Assembly: GCA_964458565.1 (NCBI GenBank)
Contig: CAYWJO010000002.1
Location: 32,001 to 96,000 of the forward strand
Length of the DNA: 64,000 bases
Origin: an uncultured archaeon
GTDB taxonomy: Archaea > Asgardarchaeota > Thorarchaeia > Thorarchaeales > Thorarchaeaceae
Direction: 5' to 3'
Shown: one piece after another, positions 11,930 to 18,835 of the stretch
Layout: every line of letters starts with the position of its first letter
Numbering within the stretch: position 1 is the stretch's first letter
The notes under the pieces: model-generated
Told to the model about the DNA's origin: nothing
Database searches by the model: none
Seen by the model: the letters and a program-made list of their open reading frames with translations, nothing else
Program-made: the position numbers and the translations under genes

Positions 11930-12036
11930 AAATACAGTCTATCACATTGATGCCAATACTTATCAAGGAATCTCCTATATAATTGCAAAAATCATGGAGG
12001 TATAAAACACAATGGCAACAACTCTCAGGTGGGATC

Positions 12037-12270
12037 ATGTTTGCCCGACGTTCATTTTTAGCTCTACCTCCCTCTGCGAAGTTCCTATACGTGCTTCTTA
12101 AAGAACGACATAGGATTTCCAGGCAAGATCTGATAGACATCACATTCTTGCCACCTCGTACAGTGAATTATGGCCTAAGCAGACTAAAGGACCTTGGTCT
12201 AGTTCAAGATATGGAGCATGCAGAGGACAAGAGAGAACGAGTGTATGAACTTACTCGGAAACCAATGTGA
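12037..12270 (+). CDS. Small MarR-like winged-helix protein
   Basis: LPPSAKFLYVLL...LPPRTVNYGL..L...DKRERVY; AGGTGG RBS before ATG 12037. Confidence 0.85.
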   Translation: MFARRSFLALPPSAKFLYVLLKERHRISRQDLIDITFLPPRTVNYGLSRLKDLGLVQDMEHAEDKRERVYELTRKPM

Positions 12271-12285
12271 TTCTACAGATTCAAA

Positions 12286-12323
12286 GGCATCTCTGGTATT
12301 CCAGAGATGTCACACCCTTTTTT
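12286..12323 (+). terminator. Hairpin plus T-tract
   Basis: GGCATCTCTGG-TATT-CCAGAGATGTC followed by CCCTTTTTT. Confidence 0.6.
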
Positions 12324-12394
12324 CTATCACCTCCAAAACCCTCTTAACTTAGCATCATTGGGACGATGATGAAAATACTCAGAGGGAATTCAAG

Positions 12395-13753
12395 ATGGAT
12401 TTTTATCAGAAAGCAGGGGTTGAGCCTATAGGCAATTTACCTAGGACTCATTTCACATTGGATATTATCCCGAAGAACAAGGATGTACATGTAATTCTCA
12501 TGGGTTGGGTTCATATTATCCGTGACAAGGGTAAAATCAAGTTCTTGATTCTAAGGGACGAACGTGGTGTAGCCCAAATAACAATTCCTCAGAAGAAAGT
12601 ACCCGTAGAAGTGTTCGAAACCTCTGAGCAACTGAAGCCAGAAATGGCTATTGCCGTGCATGGTAAAATTGTAGAAGCAAAACAAGTGGAGTCTGGTGCA
12701 GAGATAATTCCTGACAGAATTCGAATACTGAACACTGCTGAGCGTCTTCCGATTGATGTCGTTGAAGGTAAGGTCGATATTGAACTTGACACTAGGCTCA
12801 ACCATCGTATTCTTGATCTGCGAAAACCTAGTATAAATGCCATTTTTAGAATCCAGCATTCTCTTGTCCGATTTGCCCGAGAATATTTGGAGCGAAATGA
12901 TTTCATTGAAATTCACACACCAAAGATTGTCGCTGAAGCAACGGAGGGTGGCGCAAATCTCTTTGAAATAAAATATTTTGAAAAGAAGGCATATCTTGCA
13001 CAGAGCCCGCAATTCTACAAGCAGCTTATGTTACTTGCTGGATTTGGACGCGTCTTTGAGATCGCACCTGTTTTCAGAGCGGAGAAACACAATACCCGCC
13101 GCCATGTTAATGAATACACTTCATTTGATCTTGAAATGGCTTGGATTAGTGGCGTTGAGGATGTCATGCAGGTCGAGGAGCAAATGCTTCATTATTCATT
13201 TGAGCTGACTGCGAAACACTGTGTTAACGAATTTGACTTACTAAATGTGGATTTCGAGGTTCCGAAGTTGCCATTTGGTCGGATCAAGTATGTTGATGCT
13301 ATTGCCCTTCTCAATGAAAACGGAAAGGAACTAAATATCACCGATGATTTAGATCCTGAGAGCGAACGCCTTCTCGGGGACCTCTTTCCAGAGAAATTGG
13401 GTACAAATATGGTCTTCATCACTCACTATCCACTTGAACTAAGACCTGCATATACCATGCCAAGCTTGACTGATGAAGGAATGACTGAGAGCTTTGATCT
13501 CACTTACAAAGGAATGGAGATTACAACAGGAGGTCAACGTATTCATCTCTATGACCTTCTTGTTGAGCGTTTCAAAGCAAAGGGGTTCAATCCTGATGAT
13601 TTTGGATTCTATCTCGATCCTTTCATGTACGGCGCTCCTCCTCATGGTGGATTAGGACTTGGTGTCGAACGCTTGACCATGCAATTACTTGGAATTGATA
13701 ATATTCGTGAGGTAACCCTCCTCCCACGAGACCGTGACCGAATCACTCCCTGA
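12395..13753 (+). CDS. aspS: Aspartyl-tRNA synthetase (archaeal type, probably non-discriminating)
   Basis: OB fold GWVHIIRDKG (His typical of non-discriminating enzymes), LAQSPQ, FRAE, PPHGGLGLGVERL. Confidence 0.95.
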   Translation: MDFYQKAGVEPIGNLPRTHFTLDIIPKNKDVHVILMGWVHIIRDKGKIKFLILRDERGVAQITIPQKKVPVEVFETSEQLKPEMAIAVHGKIVEAKQVESGAEIIPDRIRILNTAERLPIDVVEGKVDIELDTRLNHRILDLRKPSINAIFRIQHSLVRFAREYLERNDFIEIHTPKIVAEATEGGANLFEIKYFEKKAYLAQSPQFYKQLMLLAGFGRVFEIAPVFRAEKHNTRRHVNEYTSFDLEMAWISGVEDVMQVEEQMLHYSFELTAKHCVNEFDLLNVDFEVPKLPFGRIKYVDAIALLNENGKELNITDDLDPESERLLGDLFPEKLGTNMVFITHYPLELRPAYTMPSLTDEGMTESFDLTYKGMEITTGGQRIHLYDLLVERFKAKGFNPDDFGFYLDPFMYGAPPHGGLGLGVERLTMQLLGIDNIREVTLLPRDRDRITP

Positions 13754-13828
13754 TAATACTTGGTCTTAAAGGATAAACTTGGTGAGTATGATTACCTCTT
13801 TAGAGTAATACCATATGGTGAGAACCAG

Positions 13829-14578
13829 ATGCCTGATAGAGCTCAATCAGAACTATATGCTTCAATAGCGACCCTCGATCAACTCAAGAAACTTTATGAT
13901 GTTGGCGCAGTTGATCCCCGGTCTTACCAGCGTGAAACTGAGGGATTACTTACTGAGGTTAGATTCCATCTTGATGAACTAAGACGAGTTGGGCTTGATG
14001 TTGGAAGATTTATTGAAACTGAACGGCTCTCAGACCAGTTTCCAGACGCTCTTCATATTCTTCAGTTGAGAGATACAAATCCATCAACCTCAGTTCAGGG
14101 TATGACAAAAGAGGAATATTATGATTATATCGGACTTTCCGTTCTCGATGTTGTCACTGCTAATTCCTCTAAAGGATTAATGGGATTGGCTGAGTTGATT
14201 GTTGAGGTAGTGCGAAAACTACCTGAATTGAAGTCAGTAAGTTACAATGATGTTATTGAAGCGGTAAATATGGTCGCTCAACATGGTTTAATCCCTGGTA
14301 TTAGGACTCTCAAAGGTGGAGTAAAGGTTGTTGAGCTTCGGCCTTTGGAATTACGCCGAGATCAGGCTGATGTAATCAATATTGCTGCCTCTAAGGGATT
14401 TGTTACTGTAGAAGAAATAATGCTTGAGTTCAAATGGTCTGAGGATCATGCGCGTCAAGTATTGACTAGTCTAGTCGATGCTGGAATGGCCGTTGCTGAT
14501 ATGAGGTTTTCCACAGGTGGCAGATACTGGTTCCCCGGTTTGCGTTCGAGAGACTCAAGTAGTCAAACGCATCCATAA
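13829..14578 (+). CDS. ESCRT-II Vps22/Vps36 (EAP30)-like protein with Vps28-N-terminal-like region
   Basis: C-terminal tandem winged helices match the Vps22 pattern (YYDYIGLSVLDV..GLMGLAEL..VSYNDVIEAV..GFVTVEEI..FKWSEDHARQVL..LV..G..RYWFPGL). N-terminus ELYASIATLDQLKKLYDVGAVDPRSYQRETEGLL resembles Vps28-N. Start ATG 13829 after GGTGAG. Confidence 0.85.
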   Translation: MPDRAQSELYASIATLDQLKKLYDVGAVDPRSYQRETEGLLTEVRFHLDELRRVGLDVGRFIETERLSDQFPDALHILQLRDTNPSTSVQGMTKEEYYDYIGLSVLDVVTANSSKGLMGLAELIVEVVRKLPELKSVSYNDVIEAVNMVAQHGLIPGIRTLKGGVKVVELRPLELRRDQADVINIAASKGFVTVEEIMLEFKWSEDHARQVLTSLVDAGMAVADMRFSTGGRYWFPGLRSRDSSSQTHP

Positions 14579-14579
14579 T

Positions 14580-15296
14580 CTAAAGTACCAGACGAACTGC
14601 TCCCTTCTGCTTGTCAATCCACTCTGCTAATTCTCTTTCTACAAGAAGCTTGATCACATAATGAATTTCTTTCTCAGGAAGTTTAGCAAAATTTTGTTTA
14701 TTTTCTTGAATCACAATAGACTTCACATCTAATCGAGTTCTACCATTTTCTAAAGCCCATTGATAGATTATATCTGCCCATTCTTCCAAGAAACGCCAAT
14801 ATACTCTCAATTGACGCTTTTTCCCCTCCATCCAAATTCCTACTTCTTTCTCAACAATCTTGTCGCCAATTTTTCTATAAGCATCGGCCTTGTTCTGGAT
14901 GTCTTTGAATGGATATTCTGACACAAACTTTGAGAAGCTAAGGATATGAATTGAGTATTCTTCACACCATTCGAGAACGAAATCGGACCACTCGGATGCC
15001 CACATCTGTAAATCCTCCTCTCTTACAGGAATGTGGTACATCCACTCAGTCTGTGATATGTCTCCCCAGCTTGGTAGTAACCGAGGCTCTTCTACAATCA
15101 TTTCTATTTCTGATTTAGTTTCAACAATACTACCTTTCTCTATCTCAGCTTCTGTTTCGATGATAGGCATTTCTTCGTGAATCATTGATTCCGTTTCAAT
15201 TTGAGTTTCAGTCTCTTGTTCTTCAACTATACCTTCTTTGGCATCGCTCTTATCAACTGACTTTTGTTTTCGCCTGATTCGCTCTCTCTCTCCCAC
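14580..15296 (-). CDS. vps25: ESCRT-II Vps25-like protein with acidic N-terminal extension
   Basis: QMWASEWSDFVLEWC, YPF and VYWRFLEEWADIIYQWA match Vps25 motifs; adjacent to Vps4. Confidence 0.85.
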   Translation of the reverse strand: MGERERIRRKQKSVDKSDAKEGIVEEQETETQIETESMIHEEMPIIETEAEIEKGSIVETKSEIEMIVEEPRLLPSWGDISQTEWMYHIPVREEDLQMWASEWSDFVLEWCEEYSIHILSFSKFVSEYPFKDIQNKADAYRKIGDKIVEKEVGIWMEGKKRQLRVYWRFLEEWADIIYQWALENGRTRLDVKSIVIQENKQNFAKLPEKEIHYVIKLLVERELAEWIDKQKGAVRLVL

Positions 15297-15299
15297 AGG

Positions 15300-16532
15300 C
15301 TAGGAACCCTCCGCCCAATCACTATACTTCTTCACGTCTTCCGGTGACGTTGCTGGTCTAATGTTATCAATGGCGTCTAGAAAATCCTTTCGTGAAACGG
15401 TTCTAAGATCCAGAATCTCGGTGTCATCATCCATTCTTCCGGTGCTTTCAAGTTCTCTAATTGGTTCCATAGCTGCTTCCCGACATACTATACTTAGATC
15501 TCGACCGCTGTATCCTTCTGTTAGCATAGCCATCTCATTAAAATCAACATCAGGCGCGATATCAACACCCTCAATATGTATCTCAAAAATCCGTCTTCTA
15601 GCAATCTTGTCAGGAAGTGGAACATGAATGCGTTTCTCAAAGCGGGAACGTAGAGCAAAATCAATCTCCCATGGTAAATTCGTCGCACCAATGAGAGTGA
15701 TTCTTTCATCTGCTTCACTAGCTAACCCTTGAAGCTCCGTCAACAGTTGTGTCTTTAATCTACGTTCTCCACCAACATCGTCTCCAGACCTCGCTACCCC
15801 AATTGAGTCCAGTTCATCAATAAATATAATCGCAGGCTGCATGCTTCGCGCTCGTTCAAATAGCATCTTGACAAGTTTCTCCGATTCTCCCAACCACTTA
15901 CTTACAATATTTGCTGCTGAAACATTGAAGAATGTTGCACTCACTTCTGCAGCAACCGCACGAGCTATCAACGTTTTCCCGCATCCTGCAGGTCCATAAA
16001 GTAGGATTCCTTTCCATGGTTGTCTTGCTTTACCTCTGAACAACTCAGGGTGTTTCATTGGGGCTACGATTGCCTCTGTGATTGCTTGTTTTGCCTTCTC
16101 AAGTCCTGCTACATCTGCCATACTTCCATGTGGTGTTTCAGTAATGATGGTGTCTGCAATCATATCTCCAAGTCTTTTTCCATCCTCATCATCAGTAGAG
16201 GGGACCGGTCTATCTGACTCAGAGGTTCTTGTATCTTCAACAATTGTTGTTGGGAGTGTGCTTATCCCATCTATTGGCCCTCTTGATTTCTTTTTAATTC
16301 CTGACAGATATCTGACTCTATCAACACATTCCTGAGCTCTATCCAAGTAGTGTTTCCGAACAGAACGTAATGTTGCTGCGTTAGAGAGCTTAATCAATAT
16401 CTTACTCGCTTGCAAGTATTGTCTTGCAGCTTCCTTTTTCATTCCCCTTCTGTCTAGATCGATGGCTTTCTCAAGGAGTTTCCTGAGTCCTTCATCGAGT
16501 CTATTACTACCTGAATCTGACATTTTCTTCAC
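15300..16532 (-). CDS. vps4: Vps4 AAA+ ATPase (MIT + AAA)
   Basis: N-terminal MIT (KAIDLD..EAARQY), GILLYGPAGCGKT, SKWLGESEK, IIFIDELD, GATNLPW, RFEKRI. Confidence 0.93.
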   Translation of the reverse strand: MKKMSDSGSNRLDEGLRKLLEKAIDLDRRGMKKEAARQYLQASKILIKLSNAATLRSVRKHYLDRAQECVDRVRYLSGIKKKSRGPIDGISTLPTTIVEDTRTSESDRPVPSTDDEDGKRLGDMIADTIITETPHGSMADVAGLEKAKQAITEAIVAPMKHPELFRGKARQPWKGILLYGPAGCGKTLIARAVAAEVSATFFNVSAANIVSKWLGESEKLVKMLFERARSMQPAIIFIDELDSIGVARSGDDVGGERRLKTQLLTELQGLASEADERITLIGATNLPWEIDFALRSRFEKRIHVPLPDKIARRRIFEIHIEGVDIAPDVDFNEMAMLTEGYSGRDLSIVCREAAMEPIRELESTGRMDDDTEILDLRTVSRKDFLDAIDNIRPATSPEDVKKYSDWAEGS

Positions 16533-16662: not shown

Positions 16663-17271
16663 TTGGGTACATTCAAAAAAGCATGGTCTTGGGGTCGTAA
16701 AAAACCCGACATATCTGAGGTTTCTAGTCAATTACGTATTCTAATAAAACAGTTAGAACGTCAGAGAAATAAATTGGAAAAAGAGGAACGTGACACGAAA
16801 GCTCGTGCTATTCGTGCGCGACAAGCAGGTCAGAATGAAGCATATGTGACCTATGCAACTGAAATGGTTCGATTTCGTCGCTATGTTCTTTCAATCGATA
16901 AATCCCGCTTACAGATGTTGAAGATTTTGGCTCATCTAACCCGGGCACAGACAACTGCTAAAGCAGCGAAAGCTATGGAAGATGTTGCTAAAATCCTTGG
17001 AATGCTTGGGGACTCCATGGATGCCTCAAAGGTCATAGAGAATGCTGATGAAATTGCTCGTCAAGTTCAAGAGTTCGAAATCGAATCTGGTATTGCTGAT
17101 GATGCATTCGATTCTGCTATGCCTGAGATTTCTAGTGAAGACATCGCTGAGGCTATGGCTGAAATCGACGCTGAAGTTGGTGGTAAAGCAACTGTTGGAA
17201 AACGTCCGGCGACTGAAGCGGAAGCATTAGAGGATGACATTAAAGCATTGGAACGAGAGCTAGGTGTGTAA
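16663..17271 (+). CDS. ESCRT-III subunit, Vps2/24/46-like
   Basis: Amphipathic N-terminus MGTFKKAWSWGRKK, basic helical hairpin (ARQAGQNEAYVTYATEMVRFRR), acidic C-half, MIM1-like end EDDIKALERELGV; divergent from vps4. Confidence 0.9.
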   Translation: MGTFKKAWSWGRKKPDISEVSSQLRILIKQLERQRNKLEKEERDTKARAIRARQAGQNEAYVTYATEMVRFRRYVLSIDKSRLQMLKILAHLTRAQTTAKAAKAMEDVAKILGMLGDSMDASKVIENADEIARQVQEFEIESGIADDAFDSAMPEISSEDIAEAMAEIDAEVGGKATVGKRPATEAEALEDDIKALERELGV

Positions 17272-17275
17272 CGCT

Positions 17276-18835
17276 CTATAGATCATATCTTCTTTCTGCA
17301 GAGTGTCTCTCAATTTCTCGACGTGCATAATATGAATCTCGCATCAGGCTACGATATCTTCTGATAAAATCTTCAGGAACGATTCTTCCAGCTCTCAACA
17401 TATGAATAGTTTCCCGAATTGCGTCATCAAGCGCTCTTGCATCTCTTCTCATATTATCAAGATTTGGTCTTGTTTGACGCTCGTAATATTGTGGCGGTGT
17501 TCTCTGGCCTATTAGTTGTTCCAAATGGTCGCTGAACCGTTGCTGACTACCATAGTTTTGTGAATATCCAACTTGACGGTCTCTTGACCATTGATCAGTC
17601 TGCGGTTGCGGATAATATCTCGAAGTATCTTGTGCATAACGAGGTCCTGTCATTTTGGAATTCAGTATTGAATATACAATTCCCTCAATTCTTAGTCGAA
17701 TATCGCTGATGTTGGTGTCGGTCTGTTCTAACTTTCTCACACGCTGCATGTCAGTCTGAACATATCGTTCAAATCTACGTGCGATTTCAATGTAGTCTGG
17801 AAGAACTCTTTTCGTTTGATCACTGCAGATAATTTTAAGATCTCCCTGTTTCAACTTCAAAACCAATCGTTTTCGAAGTCGACCATCTTCTTGTATATCT
17901 TTCAGATACAGAAGTGGAAAATCAAAAACGATGTCAGTTTTTTTCCTTACCAACCCCGTTTCAGCAACGAAAATCATTCTTTTATTTGTGATAAAGAGAC
18001 TTCCTGTAGCTTTGTCATTCTTGATAAAATCGCTTCCTGCAAGAGTTATTGGTGAGAACGCGCTCACAGGTAGTTCATTGACTGAAAGTTCAGAGTATTC
18101 GTAAAAGGGTGAGAATTTATCTCTATAATACTTCAACCCATCTAGTTGTTTCTTTACGTCATCCATAGTCAATCGTGCTTGAACCAACGTTTCTTCCACA
18201 AGAGCTCGGTAGCTTATTCCAAGTTCAGTAATTCGATTAACAACTCCTTCAATAAAGGGAAATTGAGATGGACTCCAAGAAGACTGATCAATCAATCCTT
18301 TAGTTTCTGCAACCATCTGTTTAGCTACAATCTCGGCGTGATTTCCAATTCGCTTCTTTATCGCTGGGAATTCAGCATGTATTTCTTCAATTCTCTCTTC
18401 CAACCACTTGTAATGAAGGAAATTAGCCATCCTTAGAGATACCAATAATCTCTTTCCAGCGACCATTCGATTTGTGAATTCCTTAAGTTTCGTGTGTCCA
18501 TATTGCAGGCTCATTATCGCACTACGCATATCATGAGCTAACTCTCTTTGCTTCTCTGATATGTGTACGATTCTACTTGAATGACAGTGAGGGCAAACCT
18601 CCATTGTCCTCTTACCAATCCCAAGGTTCTCAGAGTCGCACTCGGGACATTTCAAGGGATTTTCACCTGGCAATGGGACTCCAAGATTGTGCTGGCAATC
18701 TTTGCACATTCGGTATTCTCTAACTCTCTGTTCCAAACATGCTGAGCAAATTGTAGTTCCGCAGTCCTCACACATATGAGTTGCAGACTGATTCTCACAT
18801 TCCTTGCATGTTAGGTTTGAGGAATCTGCGGTCAT
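17276..18835 (-). CDS. Zn-finger / coiled-coil / GRAM-PH-like / steadiness-box-like protein (putative ESCRT-I subunit)
   Basis: Six CxxC pairs in aa 10-84; helical aa ~95-240; ATGSLFITNKRMIF (aa 276-289); Q/Y/P/R-rich linker; C-terminal ALDDAIRETIHMLRAGRIVPEDFIRRYRSLMRDSYYARREIE. Confidence 0.7.
   Translation of the reverse strand: MTADSSNLTCKECENQSATHMCEDCGTTICSACLEQRVREYRMCKDCQHNLGVPLPGENPLKCPECDSENLGIGKRTMEVCPHCHSSRIVHISEKQRELAHDMRSAIMSLQYGHTKLKEFTNRMVAGKRLLVSLRMANFLHYKWLEERIEEIHAEFPAIKKRIGNHAEIVAKQMVAETKGLIDQSSWSPSQFPFIEGVVNRITELGISYRALVEETLVQARLTMDDVKKQLDGLKYYRDKFSPFYEYSELSVNELPVSAFSPITLAGSDFIKNDKATGSLFITNKRMIFVAETGLVRKKTDIVFDFPLLYLKDIQEDGRLRKRLVLKLKQGDLKIICSDQTKRVLPDYIEIARRFERYVQTDMQRVRKLEQTDTNISDIRLRIEGIVYSILNSKMTGPRYAQDTSRYYPQPQTDQWSRDRQVGYSQNYGSQQRFSDHLEQLIGQRTPPQYYERQTRPNLDNMRRDARALDDAIRETIHMLRAGRIVPEDFIRRYRSLMRDSYYARREIERHSAERRYDL

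Follow-up and report, generated by a model that had tools for sequence, protein, structure and literature searches.

The stretch analyzed here, 64,000 nucleotides of an archaeal assembly (GCA_964458565.1, contig CAYWJO010000002.1, positions 32,001 to 96,000; hereafter the window), contains a gene that encodes the N-terminal domain of Vps28 (Vps28-N) joined to the tandem winged-helix core of Vps22. [quoted passage not shown] The fusion gene occupies positions 13829..14578 of the + strand and was identified from its open reading frame (ORF) and translation (249 amino acids and a stop codon), from the Pfam EAP30 and VPS28 profiles, and from its orthologues. The source genome of 3.7 Mb is distributed over 93 contigs and is 93% complete, and the close matches to the fusion protein carry a Thorarchaeota label in their sources. 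A 2024 study had already described the Vps28-N/Vps22 architecture in Thorarchaeota; the present gene is a confirmed example of it and a rediscovery.

The reading frame extends from the ATG at 13829 to the stop codon that ends at 14578. A longer frame is possible from an upstream TTG at 13760, and the ATG was preferred because M1 is near-invariant across 41 aligned orthologues. Three parts of the protein can be distinguished, all on the + strand. The Vps28 N-terminal domain comprises residues 1-80 (13829..14068) and is followed by a linker at residues 81-93 (14069..14107) and by the Vps22/SNF8-type tandem winged-helix core at residues 94-240 (14108..14548). The linker marks the junction of the two ancestral proteins. 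It varies in sequence and length and is predicted to be disordered, with a predicted local distance difference test (pLDDT) score below 50 at residues 81-88 and with gapped, poorly conserved columns in the orthologue alignment.

Identity of the N-Terminal Domain

Residues 5-80 of the fusion protein are a true Vps28 N-terminal domain. The Pfam VPS28 profile aligns with residues 7-87 of the single protein (profile positions 2-80 of 188) at an E-value of 0.0024 and 18.1 bits, a suggestive match below the cut-off of 24.5 bits, and stronger tests were decisive. When 1.84 billion representative proteins were searched with phmmer, residues 6-80 matched the Vps28 protein P0211 with an E-value of 3.9e-8 and 40% identity, and a second Vps28, P0250, matched the fusion N-terminus with an E-value of 2.6e-6. 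P0211 and P0250 are full-length Vps28 proteins according to the Pfam VPS28 profile (55 and 44 bits, respectively). The alignment of the fusion protein with P0211 contains no gaps over 75 residues and spans both helices of the hairpin and the FP.A motif. The orthologue from the sister family, a protein of 265 amino acids encoded beside Vps25 and Vps4, scores 26.9 bits with Pfam VPS28, which is above the curated cut-off.

Profiles were built for the thorarchaeal N-domains (40 orthologues), for the Vps28 N-domains (32 full-length proteins), and for canonical Vps22 N-termini. The Vps28-N profile contains 30 Vps28 proteins from 13 other Asgard families together with P0211 and P0250, and no thorarchaeal sequence. 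Comparison of the thorarchaeal N-domain with this profile using hhalign gave a probability of 99.6% and an E-value of 5e-24 over 81 columns, compared with 0.4% for the canonical Vps22 N-terminus and 0.4% for the C-terminal domain of Vps28 (Vps28-C). A second, cleaner Vps22 N-terminal profile from 28 Asgard proteins gave 0.4% against the thorarchaeal N-domain and 0.4% against Vps28-N; as a positive control, the two canonical Vps22 N-terminal profiles were aligned with each other at 99.8%. When the 22,052 six-frame ORFs of the genome were searched with the non-thorarchaeal Vps28-N profile, the fusion ORF was the sole significant match (E = 6e-18, 64.9 bits). Conversely, a search with the fusion N-domain alone recovered each of the 30 Vps28 ORFs of the 13 families, with E-values from 9e-17 to 3e-8; the adjoining Vps22 ORFs gave no match.

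The structure of the full fusion protein was modelled with AlphaFold2 from 70 sequences. The model has a mean pLDDT of 85.6, with values of 86-96 for the N-domain (residues 1-80), and contains two winged helices. Its best matches in the PDB by Foldseek are human and yeast Vps22 (2zme_A with E = 6.4e-10, 3cuq_A, and 1u5t_A). The search with the full-length model returned only Vps22, Vps36, and other winged-helix proteins and was uninformative for the N-domain; therefore, a separate model of residues 1-92 was built (pLDDT 85, predicted template modelling score 0.72). This model is a helical hairpin (helices 2-24 and 30-53) followed by short helices at 58-77. The chains ranked 1-12 in the Foldseek search of the PDB are exclusively Vps28-N chains, all of them from structures of the yeast or human ESCRT-I core or headpiece (6VME, 2F6M, 2CAZ, 2F66, and 2P22), with template modelling scores of 0.55-0.74, root-mean-square deviations of mostly 2.3-2.7 Å, and identities of 21-25%. 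At rank 13 the probability falls to 0.30, and no Vps22 or Vps36 chain appears among the top 50 matches. A sequence-profile search of the PDB was used to verify the chain identities; its top four matches are yeast Vps28 (E = 0.004-0.006).

A generic or Vps23-type steadiness box (SB) was also considered for this domain and rejected. The thorarchaeal N-domain aligned at 2.1% by hhalign with the profile of the steadiness box of the neighboring Znr-PH-CC-SB protein, and the fusion protein gave no Pfam Vps23_core match at E ≤ 1. In a separate comparison, the Asgard Vps28-N profile aligned with the thorarchaeal Znr-PH-CC-SB steadiness-box profile (17279-17464, - strand) at 80.8% with an E-value of 1.3e-5 over 36 columns. 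This sequence likeness hints, though weakly, at a shared origin of the two types of hairpin.

The Vps22-Type Winged-Helix Core

The remainder of the fusion protein is a tandem EAP30-type winged-helix core that is Vps22-like and not Vps36-like. The Pfam EAP30 profile matches residues 92-224 with an E-value of 2.2e-15 and 57.4 bits (cut-off 26.8 bits), and human SNF8 (3cuq_A, residues 71-216) matches residues 96-239 with an E-value of 2.6e-16 and 24% identity. The corresponding E-value for Vps36 is 0.08. The EAP30 alignment begins at profile position 83, and in the alignment with the 2zme_A chain, residue 96 of the fusion protein corresponds to residue 95 of SNF8. The EAP30-type N-terminal helical domain was not found in the fusion protein, as profile positions 1-82 are unmatched and the hhalign probability is 0.4%.

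These results agree in large part with the original prediction, which had assigned the first ~80 residues to Vps28-N from the letters alone and the remainder to an EAP30 tandem winged helix. The outcome that it had named as contrary, an N-terminus that scores better as the ordinary Vps22 helical region with no VPS28 match, was not observed (0.4% versus 99.6%). Its label of Vps22/36 is narrowed to Vps22. The description of ESCRT-I and ESCRT-II in one polypeptide holds in that Vps28-N is joined to Vps22, but the ESCRT-I contribution is the Vps28 N-domain only and not the whole of ESCRT-I.

Distribution of the Fusion

The distribution of the fusion was determined in a sample of 201 Asgard genomes. 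Matches over residues 1-245 were found only in the family of the window (43 of 43 genomes) and in the single genome that represents its sister family, which belongs to the same order. An uninterrupted ORF, from residues 1-6 to at least residue 241, is present in 40 of the 43 family genomes; the gene is broken or partial in G152, G155, and G087. The matches listed outside of these two families all begin at approximately residues 60-135 and thus fall within the winged-helix part. Orthologues within the family are 59-89% identical to the fusion protein, and more than 100 protein clusters with the same architecture and identities of 64-100% were found in NCBI, JGI, ENA, and Logan. The original prediction had asked for the fusion to be sought in independent assemblies, and there it is borne out.

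A complete Vps28 (Pfam profile positions 2-188, E = 1e-10 to 1e-18) is encoded in most other Asgard families. In the family of the window, Pfam VPS28 gives weak N-terminal matches only, the best with an E-value of 6.3e-5. The fusion and the free Vps28 are complementary in their distribution, and the fusion is confined to the thorarchaeal order within the sample. Judged by their sequences, the other Asgard Vps22 proteins of the sample carry an EAP30-type N-terminus with no detectable likeness to the thorarchaeal N-domain.

In G155 (C13, 104466-105193), the fusion gene is divided into three overlapping frame pieces that correspond to query residues 3-67, 67-150, and 147-244. This arrangement points to frameshifts by sequencing error or to a pseudogene.

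Gene Order and Origin of the Fusion

Gene order around vps28 was compared at 30 loci belonging to 13 further Asgard families. At 28 of them, vps22 is located downstream of vps28 on the same strand, usually with a gap of a few bases. Because vps28 lies directly upstream of vps22 in these families, a single deletion could yield the fusion. At the thorarchaeal junction, the linker follows Vps28-N and directly precedes the first winged helix, where the alignment meets SNF8 residue 95. Both halves of the fusion are closest to their counterparts in the same two families, f15 and f8, and therefore fit vertical descent. In the proposed route, one in-frame deletion of ~600 bp across an ancestral vps28-vps22 pair would have taken out the C-terminal bundle of Vps28 and the N-terminal helices of Vps22. 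The non-covalent link between ESCRT-I and ESCRT-II would thereby have become a peptide bond.

The loci of the other Asgard families show further arrangements. Two families contain an ORF of 94-98 codons between vps28 and vps22 (L019:2088-2372 and L011:2098-2394); no Pfam match was obtained for the ORF of L019. An E2/UEV-Vps23core gene (UEV, ubiquitin E2 variant), followed by vps28 and then by vps22, forms a conserved co-directional series at L019:738-3126, L011:714-3147, and L026:753-2811. In families f5 and f13, Vps28 is part of longer ORFs (~470-490 and 311-314 amino acids; for example, L024, L031, L012, and L013), in which the Vps28-N match begins at residues 116-119 (f13) or at approximately residue 280 (L024). 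The long form in f5 is possibly identical to the UEV-Vps23-Vps28 fusion that has been published for Heimdallarchaeia.

Predicted Partner and Proposed Mechanism

The predicted partner of the retained Vps28-N hairpin is Znr-PH-CC-SB, a protein of 519 amino acids with zinc ribbons, a PH-like domain, a coiled coil, and a C-terminal steadiness box. The gene is located at 17276..18835 on the - strand of the window and was assigned from weak Pfam matches to DZR, B-box, bPH_3, and Vps23_core. The steadiness-box hairpin, residues ~458-519 (17279..17464, - strand), was located by alignment and by Pfam Vps23_core at residues 467-508. Znr-PH-CC-SB was found in every family genome (46 of 46), and its gene lies 2.5-3.5 kb from the fusion gene in the genomes with both positions listed. 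A search with its C-terminal 140 residues returned seven proteins, and orthologues were drawn from the family genomes instead. Within the aligned C-terminal 90 residues, conservation is highest in the steadiness-box hairpin, where F490, R492, R493, Y494, and L497 are invariant.

The complex of fusion residues 1-92 with Znr-PH-CC-SB residues 430-519 was predicted in three runs with a separate alignment for each protein and with three controls. The pair obtained an interface score (ipSAE) of 0.83, compared with 0.00 for the best control, and the three runs share at least 95% of the contacts. Of 80 solved complexes, 58 reach the ipSAE mark that was applied, as do 2 of 110 mismatched pairs. The pLDDT of the partner in the predicted complex is 72-73. 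The predicted interface on Znr-PH-CC-SB comprises residues 477-506. Ten of the 20 interface residues of the N-domain (E8, A11, A14, T15, Q18, L19, D29, S32, E36, and L40) and seven of the 16 of the steadiness box (R481, E488, F490, I491, Y494, M498, and R499) are at least 90% conserved.

The eukaryotic ESCRT-I headpiece contains the Vps28-N hairpin packed on the steadiness box of Vps23, and contact with ESCRT-II is made by Vps28-C (PMC10936438). The fusion protein would be a thorarchaeal ESCRT-II stalk subunit in which the N-terminal helical domain of Vps22 is swapped for the N-terminal hairpin of Vps28. The retained hairpin would dock on the steadiness box of Znr-PH-CC-SB in the manner of Vps28-N on Vps23, and Znr-PH-CC-SB, presumably a membrane- or cargo-binding protein, would be coupled directly to the Vps22 winged helices. 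The proposed chain would run from Znr-PH-CC-SB through the hairpin pairing to the covalently attached Vps22 winged helices, and then to Vps25, ESCRT-III, and Vps4 without ubiquitin. Taken together, a Vps28-N/Vps22 stalk fusion that arose by deletion, docks on a steadiness box, and provides ubiquitin-free coupling is the best overall explanation, and we consider it probable. With modest confidence, we lean toward the further proposal that the fusion is a derived state of the thorarchaeal order produced by a single deletion, and not one shared by Asgard archaea in general, and that it forms with its partner an ESCRT-I/II module of two proteins, independent of ubiquitin, which takes over the tasks of five subunits in eukaryotes. 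Within this proposal, thorarchaeal genomes are likewise without detectable ubiquitin, UEV-Vps23, and Vps28-C.

At the locus of the sister family (G112), two opposite-strand ORFs lie upstream of the fusion gene (L032:2909-5001, - strand), one of 239 residues with a weak bacterial-PH match and one of 453 residues. No single Znr-PH-CC-SB gene was seen at this locus, and the partner may be arranged differently in the sister family.

Components Not Found in the Genome

The original prediction had described the C-terminal four-helix bundle of Vps28 as missing from the fusion, and this was confirmed: the Pfam VPS28 match stops at position 80 of 188, and the Asgard Vps28-C profile matches neither the fusion protein nor any other of the 22,052 six-frame ORFs, the best genome-wide E-value being 0.2. 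Searches of the six-frame genome for a separate Vps28 with Pfam VPS28 and with the Asgard Vps28-N and Vps28-C profiles returned the fusion ORF only. Ubiquitin, E2 (UQ_con), and UEV were not found by Pfam profile searches of the genome. As positive controls, the UQ_con and ubiquitin searches were run on three further Asgard genomes, all of which keep Vps28 and Vps22 separate, and detected genes for ubiquitin and for E2/UEV-like proteins there. These findings agree with published reports that Thorarchaeota are without ubiquitin (Hatano et al. 2022, PMC9192718) and without UEV-Vps23 (bioRxiv 10.1101/2023.07.25.550441).

No other protein of the genome contains a thorarchaeal N-domain or a Znr-PH-CC-SB-type box at E < 0.1 among the 22,052 ORFs. 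Pfam Vps23_core matched the box of Znr-PH-CC-SB and one further position on contig 42 (E = 0.12). A Vps36 paralogue with a GLUE domain was not seen. A second EAP30-like protein of 778 amino acids is encoded at L068:1050-3386 (- strand; G000:C3:136049-138385), with a C-terminal EAP30 match at residues 575-755 (E = 7.9e-6, just below the cut-off) and a weak Ig-like match (CarboxypepD_reg) at residues 482-549. Its gene adjoins a gene for an SPFH/flotillin protein (L068:3487-4458, - strand), and proteins of 780-830 amino acids with the same C-terminal EAP30 match occur in at least nine other family genomes and in the sister family. One possibility is that the 778-residue protein acts as a second stalk subunit resembling Vps36; another is that it is an adaptor of a separate kind.

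Alternative Explanations

A fusion call could conceivably be chimeric, as vps28 and vps22 adjoin in other Asgard archaea and a misassembly or a frameshift might merge the two adjacent genes. The chance of such an artefact is vanishingly small, because the uninterrupted ORF recurs in 40 of 43 family genomes and in the sister family, and the same architecture recurs in the more than 100 protein clusters from four sources; recurrence on this scale rules out an assembly artefact. In addition, no coding remnants of Vps28-C or of the Vps22 N-terminus are present, and the two parts meet at the border between domains, where the model shows a flexible linker. The N-terminus might instead be the ordinary Vps22/EAP30 helical region or a generic coiled coil whose likeness to Vps28 is due to chance. 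Helical hairpins commonly yield many weak matches, the N-region is equal in length to that of human SNF8, and Pfam VPS28 scores under its curated cut-off on the single fusion protein. Against this very improbable explanation stand the library-wide phmmer match to a full-length Vps28 (ungapped over 75 residues), the independent Asgard Vps28-N profile with its sole significant match in the genome, the hhalign contrast of 99.6% and 0.4%, and the yeast Vps28 and Vps28-N chains that head both PDB searches. An ordinary Vps22 N-terminus is ruled out by the hhalign value and by the absence of Vps22 and Vps36 from the top 50 fold matches. The third possibility concerns function: the hairpin may be mainly a self-association module that replaces the Vps22 N-helices and joins two fusion proteins as the ESCRT-II stalk. 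In eukaryotic ESCRT-II, the association of Vps22 with Vps36 is probably favored by the helical domains at their N-termini (Makarova et al. 2024), thorarchaeal Vps22 is reported to interact with itself in the yeast two-hybrid assay (Hatano et al. 2022), and the hairpin occupies the exact place of the canonical domain, residue 96 being equivalent to SNF8 residue 95 in 2zme_A. We regard a mainly self-associating role as unlikely, since the N-domain has no detectable likeness to canonical Vps22 N-termini and its most conserved face coincides with the predicted steadiness-box interface. Self-association and docking are mutually compatible roles of the hairpin.

Several points weigh against the stalk fusion with steadiness-box docking as set out above. 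The pairing of Vps28-N with the steadiness box of Znr-PH-CC-SB is a prediction only, and its high score may mirror likeness to known complexes rather than this particular pair, because ESCRT-I cores have been solved. We infer the deletion route from the distribution and the present-day gene order, with no intermediate found. Vps28, Vps28-C, ubiquitin, E2, and UEV are reported as not found, and not as absent, because the genome is 93% complete; the apparent absences rest on a metagenome-assembled genome and on profile searches. A divergent Vps28-C-like module may exist elsewhere in thorarchaeal genomes, and the chain of interest in this respect is 2J9U_A, which we take to be the C-terminal domain of yeast Vps28. 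A "BAR-SB" protein from Thorarchaeota appears in Table S3 of Makarova et al. 2024 (PMC10936438), where its HHpred probability to 2J9U_A is given as 84%. Finally, the reported self-interaction of thorarchaeal Vps22 (Hatano et al. 2022, PMC9192718) means that the hairpin might serve dimerization instead of docking or in addition to it.

Relation to Known Systems

Makarova et al. 2024 (mBio, PMC10936438) described Asgard Vps22 family proteins (cog.002769) fused to SB as well as Znr_PH_CC_SB. In Table S3 of that work, residues 1-70 of the Thorarchaeota Vps22 KXH75178.1 are assigned to the PF03997 VPS28 N-terminal domain SB with an HHpred probability of 99. This "Vps22#" protein shares its architecture and lineage with the fusion reported here and has the same neighbors (Vps25, Vps4, ESCRT-III, and Znr-PH-CC-SB); the fusion likewise consists of a Vps28-N-like hairpin and two winged helices in an ESCRT cluster, which is how "Vps22#" is defined. 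The Znr-PH-CC-SB of the window has the same architecture as cog.011556 of that study. In Hatano et al. 2022 (PMC9192718), ThorAB25_09030 was cloned as "Vps22" and ThorAB25_08990 as "SB", and no thorarchaeal protein of the test set was labelled Vps28. ThorAB25_09030 has the same architecture and the same conserved start, SEL[YF]ASIATLDQLKK.

The fusion shares the tandem winged-helix core with eukaryotic Vps22/SNF8/EAP30 (3CUQ, 2ZME, and 1U5T; 24% identity to human SNF8), and the position of its gene beside vps25 is a further point of agreement. It differs in that the EAP30-type N-terminal helical domain is replaced. The N-terminal hairpin is homologous to that of Vps28 (2F6M, 2CAZ, 2P22, and 6VME) and of full-length Asgard Vps28 (40% identity), but the C-terminal four-helix bundle, which is the ESCRT-II-binding half of Vps28, is missing. 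The UEV-Vps23-Vps28 fusion of Heimdallarchaeota (HeimAB125_14070, Hatano et al. 2022) also combines Asgard ESCRT-I modules in one polypeptide. That fusion remains within ESCRT-I and keeps the ubiquitin-binding UEV, whereas the thorarchaeal fusion crosses the ESCRT-I/II boundary in a genome with no detectable ubiquitin or UEV.

Makarova et al. 2024 generalized SB to Asgard Vps22; in the present sample, a Vps28-N-type domain is found only in the thorarchaeal order. If the derived-state proposal is true, the generalization would hold, as far as sequence goes, only for Thorarchaeia. What is added to the published architecture is modest: the N-domain is specifically Vps28-N and neither a generic SB nor an EAP30 N-terminus. 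Further additions are the confinement to one order, the complementarity with free Vps28, the possible route through gene order, and the predicted conserved interface with Znr-PH-CC-SB. The Asgard ESCRT system is the main model for the rise of the eukaryotic ubiquitin-ESCRT pathway. The thorarchaeal fusion suggests that, in a lineage with no detectable ubiquitin, a covalent hand-over from ESCRT-I to ESCRT-II is possible and can do without the C-terminal bundle of Vps28. The system is compact and is suited to the in vitro reconstitution of upstream ESCRT recruitment.

The ESCRT Locus and Neighboring Genes

The fusion gene is part of a compact locus with the genes for Vps25, Vps4, ESCRT-III, and Znr-PH-CC-SB. 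The gene for the ESCRT-II subunit Vps25 (14580..15296, - strand; Pfam ESCRT-II PF05871, E = 5.1e-14) is convergent with the fusion gene, from which it is separated by a gap of 1 bp. The Vps4 AAA ATPase, composed of MIT, AAA, and Vps4_C domains, is encoded at 15300..16532 (- strand; Pfam AAA E = 1e-39, Vps4_C E = 2.2e-5, and MIT E = 7.8e-4). The gene for an ESCRT-III protein of the Snf7 family is located at 16663..17271 (+ strand; Pfam Snf7, E = 4.9e-14).

Upstream of the fusion gene, the region 11983-13753 (+ strand) contains a MarR-like winged-helix ORF (95 amino acids, weak Pfam match) and an aspartyl-tRNA-synthetase-like gene (452 amino acids). The fusion gene of the sister family has a class II D/K/N-type tRNA synthetase gene ~2.2 kb upstream of it, and two ORFs on the opposite strand occupy the interval.

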